Made by a program: the position numbers and the translations under genes
In this document: piece after piece, positions 24,250 to 42,824 of the stretch
How positions within the stretch are numbered: the stretch's first letter is position 1
How the letters are laid out: each line of letters opens with the position of its first letter
DNA from: Candidatus Poribacteria bacterium
GTDB lineage: Bacteria > Poribacteria > WGA-4E > WGA-3G
Direction: 5' to 3'
Length of the DNA stretch: 64,000 bases
NCBI GenBank assembly: GCA_965246985.1
Contig: OZ251998.1
Coordinates: forward strand, 6,505,657-6,569,656
The notes under the pieces: model-generated
The model's database searches: none
Seen by the model: only the letters and a program-made list of their open reading frames with translations
What the model was told of the DNA's origin: nothing

Positions 24250-25492
24250 AAGGGGAAGGATGGCGGTATGTGTTATCAGAATCACAGAAAGCGCGGTGGG
24301 TGACATCCATGCAGCACGTATTGCCGGGTAAACACCAAAAATGACCCCCATGAAAATAGAAAAGATGACAGATATAACCTATACTCCGCACTTCTAATTT
24401 CGGATTTTTGGTATTTATTTTTTAAACCCACGTGGTTCCAACGTTCAACAAGCAATTTCAGGTGAATCAGAGAAGATATACGTGCGAAATGAAATCTTAT
24501 TTACCATCTCTAAATTTTATTATACTGTTTGGATCCTTTCGTGACGTGGGTTTGTCTAAAAATACCAAAATGTGTCAAAACAAGTGCGGAGTGTAGGATA
24601 TAAGTATCCACTGCACGGATAATACCACAGGTCACTCCTCCACAATCGGAACAATACGAACTGCGATGCGTGCCATGCCGTGGGCGAAGAGCCAGCCCCC
24701 GGCAATACCGAGTCTGTGTCTTTTGCGGAGTACCTCCTTGGCAGAGTTAATGACAGTATAGACATCTGTGCCTTTTTGAAAAAAGACGATGAGTCTTTCA
24801 ACATAACGTTCTGAAGATATACGCTGTTGACGTGTTGTCAATGGAACAAAAATGATGTCATCCATTGACATGCCACGGCTGAGGCTTTCGCCTCTGGGCA
24901 CCATGATACCAACCACGCGGCACCTAACCCACCTTCTGCGCCTGAGGCGGATTTTCACCTCTTGTCCAAGTGGCGGAGTATTTCTGAATAACTCTGTAGC
25001 GGCGTTGACACTAAGGACACAAACCTGCTTTGCGTTGTCAACATCGTCTTCAGAAAGGAATCGCCCGTGTTGCACTTCCCATCCCATAATGTGGGCGTAG
25101 TCTGCTGTCACACCTTCAATAGTCGAACGTATTTGGACACCTTGGTTAGATGTAACCCATCTCGGATACTTTCGATTTTGTGGCAAGACATAGAGCACAT
25201 CGGGGCATTCTGCTTCAATGGCACGTGCATCAGCGAGAGAGTATCGCTCGGTTGTCCGCTTCTTCGGCTTTCCCCGTGGATACGTATAAGGGCGGACCCA
25301 GAATCGCACGTGGTTGGGGCCGCCAAGTTTTTCAATGTCGTCGGCTATAATTTTTTGGGTGCCGTCGCCAATGGCCATCATGCAGAGAACACTCGCGACC
25401 CCAATAAGGATACCGAGGATGGATAATCCAGAGCGGAGTCGGTTTTGCTGAAGGTGCGCAATGCCAGAGGTTATCGCATCATAGCACTTCAT
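24250..25492 (-). pseudogene. FtsX/MacB-type ABC permease, cassette copy 1, disrupted by an in-frame deletion and a MITE insertion
   Basis: The N-terminal 255 aa are nearly identical to the intact paralog at 36660-37922. Then an in-frame 258-bp deletion joins …RKRHR to LGIAGGW…. The extreme C-terminus (…GVIFGVYPAIRAAWMSP) lies at about 24290-24350, separated from the body by a 230-bp MITE. Confidence 0.65.
24372..24602. mobile_element. MITE with about 60-bp terminal inverted repeats inserted in permease copy 1
   Basis: Left end is atataacctatactccgcacttctaatttcggatttttggtatttattttttaaacccacgtggt. Right end in reverse complement is atatcctacactccgcacttgttttgacacattttggtatttttagacaaacccacgtcac. 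The interior is AT-rich and non-coding. Confidence 0.6.
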
Positions 25493-27551
25493 GGTATAAA
25501 TAAGGTTTCATGTCCCAAAGCAGAACGGTACCATCATAACTACCACTTGCCAGAAGTTCGCCATCCGGTGTAAAAGCTAAATCCTGTACATCCGTTGTAT
25601 GTCCCCAGAAAGTGTGTATATTTTCACCCGTTGCGACCTCCCATATCCTTATGGACACTCTGTCCACCCCCCTTATCCACCACGCCCCAGAGACGAGGTA
25701 TTTTCCGCAGGGTGAAAATGTAAGCGCAAACGGTTTGCGACAGGTTTCAGGTAGCAGGATAAGCATGCGCGTTTCCAAGGTTGTTGCATCCCGCAACCGA
25801 ATATGATCATATATCCCACAAGCGATTGTCGTGCCACAGGGCGAGAAAGCGAGTTTGTAAGGGTTACACTTATAGCGTCTCCCTATTTTTCTATTTTTTT
25901 CGATATATTGGTGTATCTGATCTGGATCCCCTCTATAGAGGGACCTATCTTCTGGTAGTTCTGTAGGGAACAATCCGATCTGTTCACCACTGACTATATC
26001 CCAGAGTCTTACTGTGCGATCTTTGGCGACGGTTGCGAGGTGTTTACCGCTTGGATGGAAAGCGACTGTTAGAATATAATTTGTATGTCCTGTAAGCATA
26101 TTGACTTTCTTCCCAGACTGTGTGTCCCATACACCAATGTCTCCTGTACCGCCTGTAGGTGCTGTACCAATGAGATGTTCACTCGTAGGTGAAAAACACA
26201 TTGCAGCGTCAAATCCTTTACTGTCTGAGAGTTTTATAATGAGGGTTTCAGACGCAATATCCCAGATTTCAATTGAACCCCTCGGAAGTTTGCAAAGTGC
26301 CAGTCGTTCTCCACAAGTAGACAATGTGCTGACTCGGAATAACTGCTGTCTTTCTTCCGTTGTGAGATTTTTAGTTTGAGTCGTGTATTGTGCCTGCATC
26401 CGCTGCGTTGGGAAAACCTGTTCTGTTTGTCTCTGTGCCACATTCCAGCATACGAGCTGCGCACCAAACATTTCCCGACTTGTTAATGTCTTACCGTTTG
26501 TAAAAAAAGCAACTGAATGTACAACAGGTTGATGATCAGCGGCATTTGAAACTTTCGTTGACAGTGGCCCGACTGTCCATACACAGAGCTCGCTATGCGA
26601 CAGGATGGTCGCGATGTGTGCTCCATCGGTTGAAAAGTGATCATGCCTGCGGTTCTGACATTCAAAGGTATCTATTTTCTCTTTTCGGATAGCATCCCAA
26701 ATCACAACTTGATGATCGTAAATATCGGCAACGCGCAGTGTGCTATCAGGTGTATAGGCAGGGATTAACCTTCTCCCATCATAAATCGTGGGTTCCGTTT
26801 CCAAAGTGCCGTTGTAAACATTCCACACCAACACCTCAGTATTCTGATTGACAGCAGCAAGATATTGCCCACAAGGCGAAAAGATGAGACTACGGTACGC
26901 CAAGGGTGCTGAGCAGTGAAGGTCCGCAATGTGTTCACTTGTTTCTATATCGGAAATCGTGAGCGTGTGACGCGGGGTTCCAGCGGACACATATCCGAGT
27001 AAGTTCCCTATCGGAGAGAAACAAATTGGAAAGTGGTGTCCCCTCTCTTCTTCTGCTACGTCAATCGGAAAGTTTGTGATGGGTGCGTTCGTGTCTTTTT
27101 GCCAAGCGTAGACAACATTTTGCTTGTCAAAACAAGAGGCAGCTAAGTATTGGTTGTCTTGAGAAAAGCAGAGCTGCGAAAAACATCCTAACATTGCTTT
27201 TACATTCTTGCGATGGTCTATCTTTGCGAGGCACTGCAGACTTTGTGTATCCCATACCTTCACAACACCATCAAGATTGCTAGTGACAATCAACTGCGTG
27301 TCGTGTGAAAAGGCAATGGTATTAAGCATCCCGCGTTCTGTTTCAAATAAGGCAAGCGGTTTCAACGACAACCTATCATATAACCAACAGCCGATCGGCG
27401 TTGCTACAGCCAGATATTTACCATCAACCGAAAAGGACATATCCGACACGCGCCCCCTTGCTAATCTGCCGATCGCACCTTCAGGCAGGTGCCAGGTTGT
27501 CACATCCGTATCAACAGCACTTCGCATCAAATTAGACTTTTCTGATTGCAA
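25479..27551 (-). CDS. cytoplasmic WD40 beta-propeller protein, cassette copy 1 (690 aa)
   Basis: No signal peptide. N-terminal W-x-LPEGA-x-GRLARG module, then at least 12 WD repeats, ending …ASGSYDGTVLLWDMKPYLYHEVL. The stop overlaps the start of the permease. Confidence 0.8.
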   Translation of the reverse strand: MQSEKSNLMRSAVDTDVTTWHLPEGAIGRLARGRVSDMSFSVDGKYLAVATPIGCWLYDRLSLKPLALFETERGMLNTIAFSHDTQLIVTSNLDGVVKVWDTQSLQCLAKIDHRKNVKAMLGCFSQLCFSQDNQYLAASCFDKQNVVYAWQKDTNAPITNFPIDVAEEERGHHFPICFSPIGNLLGYVSAGTPRHTLTISDIETSEHIADLHCSAPLAYRSLIFSPCGQYLAAVNQNTEVLVWNVYNGTLETEPTIYDGRRLIPAYTPDSTLRVADIYDHQVVIWDAIRKEKIDTFECQNRRHDHFSTDGAHIATILSHSELCVWTVGPLSTKVSNAADHQPVVHSVAFFTNGKTLTSREMFGAQLVCWNVAQRQTEQVFPTQRMQAQYTTQTKNLTTEERQQLFRVSTLSTCGERLALCKLPRGSIEIWDIASETLIIKLSDSKGFDAAMCFSPTSEHLIGTAPTGGTGDIGVWDTQSGKKVNMLTGHTNYILTVAFHPSGKHLATVAKDRTVRLWDIVSGEQIGLFPTELPEDRSLYRGDPDQIHQYIEKNRKIGRRYKCNPYKLAFSPCGTTIACGIYDHIRLRDATTLETRMLILLPETCRKPFALTFSPCGKYLVSGAWWIRGVDRVSIRIWEVATGENIHTFWGHTTDVQDLAFTPDGELLASGSYDGTVLLWDMKPYLYHEVL

Positions 27552-41401: not shown

Positions 41402-41501
41402 ATGTGAGAAACCGCACCGTAACGAGATCTCGCCATTTTTCAGATGGTCAAAATATGTCCAAAGCAAATCGTTCGGCTGGAAGCGCGCTTTGGCAAAAGC
41501 C

Positions 41502-42824
41502 CTATTCATTATAGGCACGTAACTTGGCGCGCAAGGTGCCTCGGCTAATCCCCAAAACCGCCGCCGTTTTTGATTTATTCCCGTCCTCCCGCGCCAAAGT
41601 TGCCAAGATGGCTGACTTCTCTATCTCCTTCAAGGTTGTACCGATTGGAAAGGGCAGCAAGGGATCTCCTGGGGCGTTTGAATCTGCGGAATAGACACCT
41701 GTCGCATCAGCCGACGGCAATGGGTGTGCTTCAGGGGCCTGTAAATCTTTCGGTAAGTGCTGCGGTAAGAGGTCTGTCCCGCCCGCTAAAAGTACCGCGC
41801 TACTTATGATGCCTTCTAACTCCCGAATATTGCCGGGCCAGCTGTAGGCATCAAATAACGAGAGGACTTCTGGATTTATGCCCTTTACCTTTTGATTGGA
41901 ACGGTTGTTTTCCTTTGTCAAAAAGTGTGCTGTCAACGCGGGGATGTCTTCCCGCCGCTCCCGTAACACTGGCAGCTGGATATGAAGGGGTTTTAATCGC
42001 TCGTAGAGGTCTCTACGAAACTTACCCGTTTCAACTGCTTCCACAAGGTCTGCGTTGGTAGCCGCCAGGACGCGCACTGCCACTGGAATCTGTGCTGTTC
42101 CACCGACGCGTCGAATCTTGTTTTCCTGAAGTACCCGCAGCAACTTCGGTTGTAGGGACATCGGAAGTTCCCCAATCTCGTCAAGGAACAGTGTGCTTCC
42201 CGATGCAGTTTCAAACAGTCCAATATGTTGCCGATCTGCGCCGGTAAACGCCCCTTTCTCGTGCCCAAAGAGTTCACTTTCCATCAGGTGCTTCGCAATC
42301 CCTGCACAGTTCACGACGACCAAAGCGTGTGCTGCGCAGTCACTTTGCGCATGCAAGGCACGAGCGACCAGTTCTTTGCCTGTCCCTGTCTCGCCAGAAA
42401 TAAGCACTGCTTTAGAAGATTTTGCGAACATATCAATATTTTTCAGCACTTCAAGATGCCCCGGACTTTCACCGAGAAGGGTGTCATAATTCCCATGCAG
42501 CTTCTCTCTTGACAGCGGCATTTCCGGGGGCTCCACCTCTTCTGCCCTCGGTGGTGTTTCGGTGCCGCTGGCAAACCGAAAATCGCCAGGCAAAAGTTCT
42601 GTAAAGCCAGAGGCACTGTCGTTTTGCTGCTCGGAGACCCGAGGTGCCGCCGTTGCATCCTGAATTTGGCGAAACAGTTCACTTCCCTGGAAGCCAGGAA
42701 CGAAATTGTAAGGGTACTGTTCAAGGTAGTCATGCAGAAACTCCCAATTGACAGCATTGACTATCGTAAGCATGGCGACCAGATCTCCGTAAGTATTTTT
42801 ACCTGTTTTTTGGTTCTTCATCAT
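41502..42824 (-). CDS. sigma-54-dependent transcriptional activator (Fis-family helix-turn-helix), lacking a receiver domain
   Basis: AAA+ sigma-54 interaction domain (…[17 protein letters not shown]…, GAFTGA, …[10 protein letters not shown]…) and a C-terminal helix-turn-helix (…[17 protein letters not shown]…). The N-terminal sensory domain of about 130 aa is of unknown type. Confidence 0.85.

Follow-up and report, generated by a model that had tools for sequence, protein, structure and literature searches.

A recombination-prone Poribacteria locus that pairs a small cysteine-rich protein with a WD40 protein: a candidate source of a variable exported factor

What might a eukaryote-like WD40 protein do in a bacterium when its gene is placed between those for a small, cysteine-rich secreted protein and a MacB/FtsX-type permease that lacks an ATPase? 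The question is raised by a 64-kb stretch of DNA from Candidatus Poribacteria (contig OZ251998.1, positions 6,505,657 to 6,569,656; hereafter the window, numbered from its own first nucleotide), where three minus-strand small/WD40/permease units lie, from high to low coordinates, in the order unit 3, unit 2, unit 1. Marine sponges count Poribacteria among their dominant symbionts, and the eukaryote-like WD40 proteins of these bacteria have long been suspected of a part in host interaction; we know, for these proteins, of no secretion signals and no partners.

We tentatively propose, at somewhat under an even chance, that this is a recombination-prone cassette locus in which the small-WD40 gene pair yields a variable exported envelope or secreted factor, the full form of the locus adding the permease, an outer membrane protein (OMP) of about 340 amino acids (aa) and a GT-C glycosyltransferase. 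The single domains are ordinary (WD40, MacB/FtsX permease, sigma-54 activator, GT-C), but the small-WD40 pair and the five-gene cluster match nothing described in the libraries and literature searched. The original prediction, made on this DNA from its sequence, knew of no system with this combination and that view was upheld: small protein, WD40 protein and permease together have no match in Pfam, NCBIfam, PADLOC, PDB or the literature, and literature searches on Poribacteria turned up reports of domain counts only, with no description of a small-WD40 pairing.

The small cysteine-rich protein and its WD40 partner

The small protein appears, from the searches made, to be an orphan family limited to the phylum Poribacteria. 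Across 185,579 species genomes, a pattern scan based on the small-protein alignment picked out 11 loci, every one of them in a Candidatus Poribacteria chromosome or metagenome-assembled genome (MAG); a word-index search gave 46 homologues, and 35 clusters of the family came to light when 1.84 billion cluster representatives were searched exhaustively by profile. Pfam, NCBIfam and PADLOC contain no match to it, nor did a profile search of PDB sequences find one, and JGI metagenome contigs, scanned with an alignment of the divergent branch, gave no confirmed relatives.

In the pre-protein, about 150-170 aa long, a hypervariable acidic domain follows a conserved signal/anchor and two CCGG motifs. 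The N-terminus of the pre-protein (MSKMLKTHQNTIGNLMIALLFVGGCIFLLTGSWDASESEAAKGCCGG...TLVAETTGGCCG) is near-invariant in the main branch of the family; the N-region is basic, and mean hydropathy over 19 aa reaches 2.1, against 0.88 for the N-terminus of the WD40 protein. Immediately before the first CC stands [ST]-x-A, a predicted signal-peptidase site that is kept in divergent members. The mature domain of about 110 aa is made up largely of G (14.7%), C (14.4%), D (10.6%), S (9.7%), T (9.0%) and N (7.9%), so that Ser and Thr together account for 19%, and has almost no hydrophobic core. Cysteines per protein have a mode of 16 and are even in number in 40 proteins and odd in 15 (p=0.001), and the alignment shows near-invariant Cys columns amid a variable background. 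The signal/anchor, the composition and this even 16-Cys framework together argue for an exported, disulfide-stabilised domain. A conserved leader followed by a variable Cys-rich core, as the original prediction described it, is real, and no modification enzymes were found, as it had said. Between close cassette pairs the ratio of non-synonymous to synonymous change (dN/dS) is 0.14-0.28 in the leader part and 0.45-1.24 in the variable domain. A lipoprotein/Lol reading, based on the LLFVGGC lipobox of the main branch, was rejected because divergent branches replace the Cys (by GS, GA, TF or GL) yet keep the same gene cluster.

The WD40 partner is predicted to be a tandem double propeller. The protein of unit 3 (WD3) matches PF00400 and many other propeller families in Pfam; its AlphaFold2 model is all-beta with about 60 strands (pLDDT 78.7), and Foldseek aligns this model over its full length (E 1e-30) with eukaryotic tandem double-propeller WD40 proteins. 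The WD40 proteins carry no signal peptide, no hydrophobic N-terminus and no extra domain, and are probably cytoplasmic since they lack a signal peptide or hydrophobic segment. Conservation is concentrated in an N-terminal W-x-LP-x-GA-x-x-R-x-G-R-G, in FSPCG motifs and in the last two blades, while the middle is variable; dN/dS is 0.27-0.86 in close cassette pairs. This WD40 family is large and found in Poribacteria only, with at least 561 proteins at E<=1e-20, and the abundance and enrichment of WD40 proteins in Poribacteria is documented (PMC3909097). At one related locus (L010; loci outside the window are given L numbers) a 336-aa single-propeller WD40 protein with a clear signal peptide is encoded at 11026-12036, between a 112-aa small-family gene and OMP/STT3 genes, so exported WD40 proteins also occur at such loci.

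The two genes travel together. Of the 22 motif-bearing small open reading frames (ORFs) examined, 17 have a same-strand WD40 ORF behind them, mostly at a distance of 30-220 bp (range -13 to 384 bp), and the divergence of the small variable domain is correlated with that of the WD40 protein (Spearman 0.71, Mantel p~5e-4), best partners coinciding in 11 of 16 pairs. The largest array packs 12 WD40 genes, along with some 13 small genes or fragments, into about 36 kb with no permease; another locus (L004) has four WD40 genes with one small gene. Given that arrays pair both genes without a permease and that the two co-vary, the invariant core of the system appears to be the small-WD40 pair and not the trio. 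The trio of small protein, WD40 and permease that had been put forward, downstream of a sigma-54 activator, holds in so far as it recurs at other loci; the core is narrower, and the sigma-54 module was found at 2 of about 12 loci (the window and L014). The contig of the largest array (loci L003/L006/L007; CBDBEI010000008.1, ctg60587_c; 171,142 bp) has an assembler name that flags it as circular, and could belong to a Poribacteria MAG as a large extrachromosomal element.

The three units of the window and the exchange of cassettes

On the minus strand the genes run from a GFO/Idh/MocA oxidoreductase gene through the activator, a -24/-12 element and a 60-aa ORF to small3, WD3 and perm3, and then to unit 2 and unit 1. 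The features, from high to low coordinates, are:

43256-44203, minus: GFO/Idh/MocA oxidoreductase gene (NCBIfam/Pfam matches), conserved upstream flank of the locus
41502-42824, minus: sigma-54 enhancer-binding protein without receiver domain (Sigma54_activat, PF00158, 5.5e-65; AAA_lid_14; HTH_8, 1.9e-13)
41401-41386, minus: sigma-54 -24/-12 promoter tGGCATGATATTTGCT (TGGCAT-N5-TTGCT), upstream of unit 3
40835-41017, minus: 60-aa single-pass membrane ORF with GGAGG ribosome-binding site, 75-89% aa identity in L005, L012, L014 and L016
40640-40787, minus: 5' leader of small3, with hairpin and AAGGA ribosome-binding site, 93-99% identical in L001, L005, L014 and unit 2
40133-40639, minus: small3, 168-aa pre-protein (162 aa from the second ATG) with signal/anchor, two CCGG motifs and variable acidic Cys-rich domain
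37924-40080, minus: WD3, 718-aa WD40 protein (Pfam WD40 families)
36660-37922, minus: perm3, 420-aa intact MacB_PCD and FtsX permease with no ATPase domain (PF12704, 1.2e-39; PF02687, 3e-18)
36255-36227 and 36173-36145, minus: pair of sigma-70-type promoters ahead of unit 2, each matching the consensus at 12/12 positions
35578-35698, minus: 60-aa ORF remnant of unit 2, a 13-codon stub and then a frameshifted truncated copy
35228-35419, no strand: 192-bp miniature inverted-repeat transposable element (MITE; terminal inverted repeats, TAGACATTATAA) that parts the small2 ATG from its ribosome-binding site
34769-35227, minus: small2, 152-aa intact ORF separated by the MITE from its leader and ribosome-binding site; its ortholog is the L014 small gene
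32596-34590, minus: WD2, 664-aa intact WD40 protein (Pfam)
31303-32570, minus: perm2, with one frameshift (1-nt loss in a T run near 31557)
29879-31239, minus: OMP gene, about 340 aa with His/Met-rich segments, split by a 288-bp insert (30605-30892)
28892-29872, minus: STT3-like GT-C glycosyltransferase gene, cut to 326 aa from about 800 (TIGR04154, 6.5e-8, below cut-off)
28660-28964, minus: 3' end fragment of the GFO gene, a duplicated junction 85% identical to 43256-43555
28486-28458, minus: sigma-70-type promoter-like site upstream of unit 1 (11/12, with TG extension), homologous to 36227-36255
about 28490-27757, minus: small1 pseudogene with no ATG/GTG/TTG start, its N-terminus replaced, split by a 304-bp MITE (27833-28136)
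25479-27551, minus: WD1, 690-aa intact WD40 ORF with TTG start and an internal ATG at codon 9
25492 to about 24290, minus: perm1 pseudogene, with a 267-bp internal deletion, premature stop and frameshifts

Unit 3 (40639-36660) is the sole intact unit of the three, and is the one accompanied by the sigma-54 activator, the -24/-12 promoter and the 60-aa ORF; the product of small3 is identical on an independent scaffold (L002). The original prediction of three paralogous units, each with a small Cys-rich protein, a WD40 protein and an FtsX/MacB permease, therefore needs qualifying. Three minus-strand WD40 ORFs are present, each followed by a gene with MacB_PCD and FtsX domains, but the units are not equal copies: small2 and small3 are ORFs whereas small1 is a start-less pseudogene split by a MITE, perm2 is frameshifted, and perm1 has suffered deletion as well as frameshifts. 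The 60-aa ORF said to be shared by units 2 and 3 is whole, with its GGAGG, in unit 3 and a stub with a frameshifted remnant in unit 2. Nor is the array strictly head to tail, because the gap between units 2 and 1 holds the split OMP gene, the truncated STT3-like gene and the GFO fragment. The close spacing of WD40 stop and permease start was correctly noted: they overlap by 14 nt in unit 1 (25479/25492) and are separated by a 1-nt gap in unit 3 (37924/37922).

About 6 kb of WD40 coding sequence contains no frameshifts, whereas the permease sequence, about 3.8 kb in all, has several lesions; since the WD40 genes are spared, the permease lesions probably reflect real decay and not random sequencing error, although the single T-run indel in perm2 could be such an error. 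Within the window unit 3 alone appears functional and sigma-54-controlled, and units 2 and 1 appear to be decaying copies. The two MITE copies (192 bp and 304 bp) have terminal inverted repeats TAGACATTATAA(C/T)G.TTTAA; the 304-bp copy gives small1 its stop codon, and the right end of the copy at small2 places a TATAAT 7 nt ahead of the ATG. The 288-bp insert in the OMP gene has no second copy in the window or in loci L001-L016.

A tandem triplication of one cassette, as originally predicted, was not borne out: the three units appear to be divergent cassettes, two of them decaying. WD1, WD2 and WD3 are 39.5-43.3% identical in pairs and each has a different closest relative, which also speaks against paralogs arising by collapse of one copy in assembly. 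WD2 is 88% identical to the WD40 protein of L014, WD1 is 75-77% identical over its full length to the proteins P0158, P0168, P0184 and P0189, and WD3 is 66-90% identical to other relatives. We rejected a recent triplication because closest relatives differ unit by unit, and because similarity is confined to the leader and to the flank formed by the WD40 3' end and the permease. The leaders of small2 and small3 (about 150 nt) are 98% identical, and small2 is 75% identical to its L014 counterpart in the variable part. The first 800 nt or so of perm1 and perm3, taken with the WD40 3' ends, agree at 95-100% of nucleotides, beside WD40 bodies that are 43% identical in amino acids. Divergent cassettes, each comprising a small variable part and a WD40 body, thus appear to lie between homogenised flanks.

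Comparison with L001, a contig of a 98%-identical strain from a separate long-read assembly, extends this picture. L001 is without 43255-40838 (activator, promoter and 60-aa ORF) and 36915-24647 (units 2 and 1), and its deletion junction lies inside the permease repeats, between perm3 and perm1. In addition, a tract of 3116 bp (window 40622-37507; L001 9460-12570), spanning small3, WD3 and the 5' part of perm3, is without a single difference between the two, although they diverge by 2-5% in its flanks. Something very recent seems to have happened here, whether the transfer of a cassette, gene conversion or a sweep. The homogenised flanks, the L001 deletion and the identical tract all bear the marks of what is probably ongoing recombination and cassette exchange.

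Permease, further partners and the sigma-54 module

The trio of genes is linked beyond the window. The order small-WD40-permease, with overlap or close abutment of the WD40 and permease genes, is found in L014, twice in L017, in L018 and in L022. In L014 the trio is accompanied by the activator, an identical sigma-54 promoter, the 60-aa ORF, the OMP and STT3; one of the two L017 trios is broken by an IS4 transposase; L018 is a second locus in the genome of L005, with unrelated flanks; and L022 belongs to the most divergent branch of the small family (its small protein is about 38% and its WD40 protein about 32% identical to those of unit 3). These occurrences, in separate genomes and in neighbourhoods that differ, argue that the trio is not a local accident. 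The GFO gene is 95-99% identical in L001, L005, L013, L014 and L016, and is always placed just upstream of the cassette region.

Perm3 has the architecture of a MacB/type VII permease, with an N-terminal transmembrane helix, a periplasmic MacB_PCD domain and a C-terminal FtsX bundle, and aligns solely to residues 253-646 of the MacB profile NF007826. It partially matches ADOP (TIGR03434; E 5.7e-34, 117 bits against a family cut-off of 622 bits), the permease also weakly matches the darobactin exporter permease family (E 0.04), and it is a member of a very abundant paralog family in Poribacteria.

Two conserved partners were absent from the original prediction: the OMP of about 340 aa and the GT-C (STT3/PMT_2) glycosyltransferase. 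A GT-C gene follows the trio in L014, L017, L018 and L022, directly or after the OMP gene, and unit 2 of the window has the same order. The OMP gene is contiguous (342 aa) in L005, L010 and L014, and L022 encodes a 334-aa homologue (64% identical) at the same position; the protein has no Pfam family and contains HxH/Met-rich stretches such as MEMEGSHDHATGHHAHPVGTHEM. The STT3-like product of the window is 96% identical to residues 1-301 of an 800-aa protein of L005. Its L017 and L018 homologs (65% identical) match PF02516 at 34-50 bits, above the 24.5 cut-off, and the L022 enzyme matches PMT_2 at 49.9 bits; these profile matches place the partner, probably, in the STT3/PMT family of GT-C glycosyltransferases. 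In L019 and L020, which are strain variants of the L018 locus, the 807-aa STT3 gene is reduced to 131-145 codons, and the glycosyltransferase therefore also appears to be polymorphic in populations.

The gene at 41502-42824 does encode a receiver-less sigma-54 activator, as had been predicted, with Sigma54_activat, AAA_lid_14 and HTH_8 domains and a GAFTGA motif at 42254-42237; its N-terminal 110 aa have no Pfam match and no known domain. An ortholog (81%) was found in L014 only, where the -24/-12 15-mer is identical too. This 15-mer is absent from the activator-less loci examined (L001, L005, L013 and L016), and the activator gene was not found in L017, L018 or L022. An AAA+ domain, GAFTGA, a helix-turn-helix and a promoter with -24 GG and -12 GC are together present for unit 3 only, for which they point to a sigma-54-dependent operon. 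The sigma-54 promoter predicted ahead of the whole array is thus present, but would serve unit 3 alone, units 2 and 1 having sigma-70-type sites; the region upstream of unit 2 is homologous to that of the activator-less loci L005 and L016. Sigma-54 control seems to be a facultative regulatory module of one cassette.

Most cassettes have a conserved hairpin leader of about 100 nt (for example, window 40787-40640 and L007 9820-10020); in arrays most of them also have, ahead of it, a TTGACA-N17-TATCAT site of their own, and the leader is about 80-90% identical ahead of most small genes there. Its stem shows a compensatory change across lineages (CATAG...CTATG versus CATCG...CGATG); it has no Rfam match, an Rfam search of 24-44.5 kb of the window having returned zero matches. 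Upstream of the 60-aa ORF there is a further region conserved across loci (window 36126-35692; L005 9288-9608; L017 4942-5253), in which ORFs of 103-144 aa carry RA(A/S)FVLHG..HRGL; this may be a gene or conserved non-coding DNA.

What the locus may do, and how it compares with known systems

In the proposal that we favour, of a cassette locus for a variable exported factor, the small protein would be exported by Sec, form about eight disulfides as it folds, perhaps receive O-glycans from the GT-C enzyme, and be released or displayed on the cell surface as a variable factor facing the sponge host, phages or neighbouring cells. MacB-family transporters are known to expel Sec-delivered periplasmic proteins (enterotoxin STII, dispersin), and GT-C enzymes to glycosylate exported substrates. 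The permease and OMP, where present, might aid extraction or export, with an ATPase encoded elsewhere; the full form of the locus would comprise the MacB/FtsX permease coupled to the WD40 protein (translational coupling), the OMP of about 340 aa and the GT-C enzyme, under a sigma-54 module or sigma-70-type promoters. The WD40 protein would act as a cassette-specific cytoplasmic partner (adaptor, chaperone or neutraliser), which is the weakest step of the model, and cassettes would be exchanged through recombination in two stretches, the conserved leader on one side and the WD40 3' end/permease flank on the other.

Several findings weigh against this proposal. With the WD40 protein in the cytoplasm and the Cys-rich domain in the periplasm, that is in separate compartments, direct binding of the two is hard to picture. 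The large arrays and L005 have no permease, and in units 1 and 2, L001, L022 and the first copy in L017 it is a pseudogene, so that it cannot be essential to the pair. Of the parts that a transporter would need, no LSGGQ signature is present in the 64-kb window or in L001-L016, no ABC_tran domain was found in Pfam scans covering most window ORFs of at least 150 aa or among the called genes of related loci (including L017, L018 and L022), and no HlyD adaptor or TolC-type (OEP) channel lies beside the cluster in the window or the related loci. AlphaFold2 gave no fold for the small protein (26 sequences, pLDDT 41). N-x-S/T sequons are not enriched in it (1.26 observed versus 1.56 expected), and the idea that it is an N-glycosylation substrate was rejected on that count. 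Synteny among related genomes could, moreover, partly stem from common descent.

The pair also invites a reading as a polymorphic toxin/immunity system of bacteriocin-like kind, with the small protein as secreted toxin, the WD40 protein as cognate neutraliser, arrays as stockpiles and the permease serving export or self-protection. A conserved N-terminal and variable C-terminal part, a co-varying next gene, tandem arrays and a variable domain that evolves near-neutrally or faster (dN/dS up to 1.24) would all suit it, as would WD40 genes that remain although their small gene has gone or is damaged (unit 1; L004) and a WD40 family (at least 561 proteins) that far outnumbers the small family. We nevertheless think it unlikely, in that neither a known toxin domain nor T5/T6/T7 or Cdi/Rhs machinery was found at the loci, an exported disulfide-rich peptide is a poor match for a 700-aa cytoplasmic double propeller, and all array members retain a complete leader and their own promoter, unlike orphan C-terminal modules. 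Immunity proteins, to our knowledge, are small and located where the toxin acts. It might instead be that there is no dedicated system at all, and that an expanding WD40 family and its neighbours were brought together by descent in one variable island and duplicated passively. WD40 abundance in Poribacteria (PMC3909097), the six WD40 genes of the window and the very abundant permease family are in keeping with this, the genomes behind most loci are rather closely related (GFO 95-99% identical), and pseudogenes, MITEs and an insertion sequence mark a decaying, plastic region; but the gene order recurs at L018, a second locus of one genome with unrelated flanks, and in L022, the most divergent small branch, the WD40/permease stop-start overlap is conserved, and co-variation is accompanied by purifying selection on leader and WD40, so that this account too strikes us as quite unlikely.

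We would give less credence to a periplasmic thiol-rich module for metals, in which the Cys-rich protein buffers metals, the OMP and permease move them and the sigma-54 protein is a stress regulator. Sponges accumulate metals, the mature domain is 14% Cys with CC motifs, and the OMP has the HxH/Met-rich stretches quoted above (MEMEGSHDHATGHHAHPVGTHEM); yet even Cys counts and a fixed 16-Cys framework indicate disulfides and not thiolate clusters, hypervariability, multi-copy arrays and a co-varying WD40 protein are foreign to metal homeostasis genes, and there are no Pfam/NCBIfam matches to CopB/PcoB, metallothionein or bufferin families, all of which makes it improbable. The resemblance to a bacteriocin or ribosomally synthesised and post-translationally modified peptide (RiPP) locus, raised by the original prediction, found no positive support beyond the leader, the variable Cys-rich core and an export permease with its weak match (E 0.04) to the darobactin exporter permease family. 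No radical SAM, MNIO, YcaO, lanthionine synthetase or C39-peptidase ABC exporter is present in the window or about 20 loci, the N-terminus is a hydrophobic Sec-type signal/anchor, and a mature part of about 110 aa with a protein-like 16-Cys disulfide framework is very hard to reconcile with such a peptide, so we regard a RiPP as highly improbable. That the paralogs are mis-assembled copies of a single cassette is barely credible: the related strain contig L001 does have one cassette here, but the perm3-perm1 deletion explains that, the WD40 proteins are 40-43% identical with a distinct ortholog each elsewhere, the junctions are unique in sequence (GFO fragment, MITEs, truncated STT3), and an analogous duplication is present in another genome (L017).

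A more speculative reading, and by our reckoning a long shot, is that the small protein, the WD40 protein and the ATPase-less permease could form a nucleotide-independent trans-envelope recognition device, with the WD40 gene standing in the usual place of the ATPase gene. A hypervariable extracellular Cys-rich (glyco)protein might then, just as improbably, be coupled to the co-varying cytoplasmic double propeller via the conserved membrane segment and the permease. If true, Poribacteria would possess a cassette-encoded, recombining means of recognising the host or of telling self from non-self, a bacterial equivalent of polymorphic allorecognition loci.

Set beside known systems, the locus resembles MacAB-TolC/STII and Aat/dispersin in that a small, disulfide-containing protein with a signal peptide is encoded with a MacB_PCD and FtsX permease and an outer membrane protein; the Aat cluster also has a lipid/sugar-type modifying enzyme, where this locus has a GT-C glycosyltransferase. 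It differs from these in having no fused or adjacent ATPase, membrane-fusion adaptor or TolC-family channel, in the dispensability of its permease, in a WD40 gene at the translationally coupled upstream position and in a cargo that is hypervariable and multi-copy. With contact-dependent inhibition (CDI)/Rhs polymorphic toxins it shares a conserved N-terminal and variable C-terminal part, a co-varying downstream gene, tandem arrays, cassette exchange at conserved flanks and orphaned downstream genes; unlike them it shows no toxin domain or delivery machinery, its partner is a 700-aa double propeller, and every member of an array comes with a full leader and a promoter of its own. PADLOC returned for the locus only generic AAA/HTH (RtcR/PspF-type) and FtsX-TM matches, with nothing for the small protein and nothing WD40-specific. 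Orphan FtsX-family permeases (ADOP, TIGR03434) and FtsEX-type signalling likewise involve an FtsX/MacB fold without a neighbouring ATPase, but here the permease module is single and not duplicated as in ADOP, there is no FtsE and the context differs. Cone-snail toxin superfamilies combine a conserved signal with a hypervariable mature region and a Cys framework with CC pairs; the likeness is one of organisation only, the small protein being bacterial, with a far larger mature domain and no homology. Among the eukaryote-like repeat proteins of sponge symbionts (WD40, ankyrin, TPR), the WD40 partner belongs to the Poribacteria-wide tandem-propeller expansion (PMC3909097), and what sets it apart from published counts of repeat proteins is the fixed pairing with a secreted Cys-rich protein, the tandem arrays and the links to permease and GT-C.

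With this locus, part of the Poribacteria WD40 expansion acquires a concrete genetic setting: a fixed, hypervariable partner with the marks of an exported, disulfide-rich protein, a recurrent envelope permease, an OMP and a periplasm-facing glycosyltransferase, together with cassette exchange and copy-number change between strains. Enrichment of WD40 proteins can thereby be turned into testable hypotheses on a variable surface or secreted factor of an uncultured symbiont, and the orphan family and conserved cluster are traceable in sponge metatranscriptomes and metaproteomes. The cassette dynamics are typical of interaction or conflict loci, in a cluster confined to one candidate phylum. If it is true that the WD40 protein works with an ATPase-less MacB-type permease, this would be new for the type VII ATP-binding cassette (ABC) superfamily.

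Elsewhere in the window there are three extra canonical WD40 genes (12676-13878, 13889-16021 and 49482-51434), making six in all. The last of these encodes a 650-aa protein with 12 strong repeats, whose 126-bp units are 67-73% identical to one another in DNA. The remaining neighbours include a DDE_3 transposase (7010-8206), an ECF sigma factor (46370-47014) adjoining LamG and hydrolase genes, and a MoxR-DUF58-BatA cluster (57602-61750).

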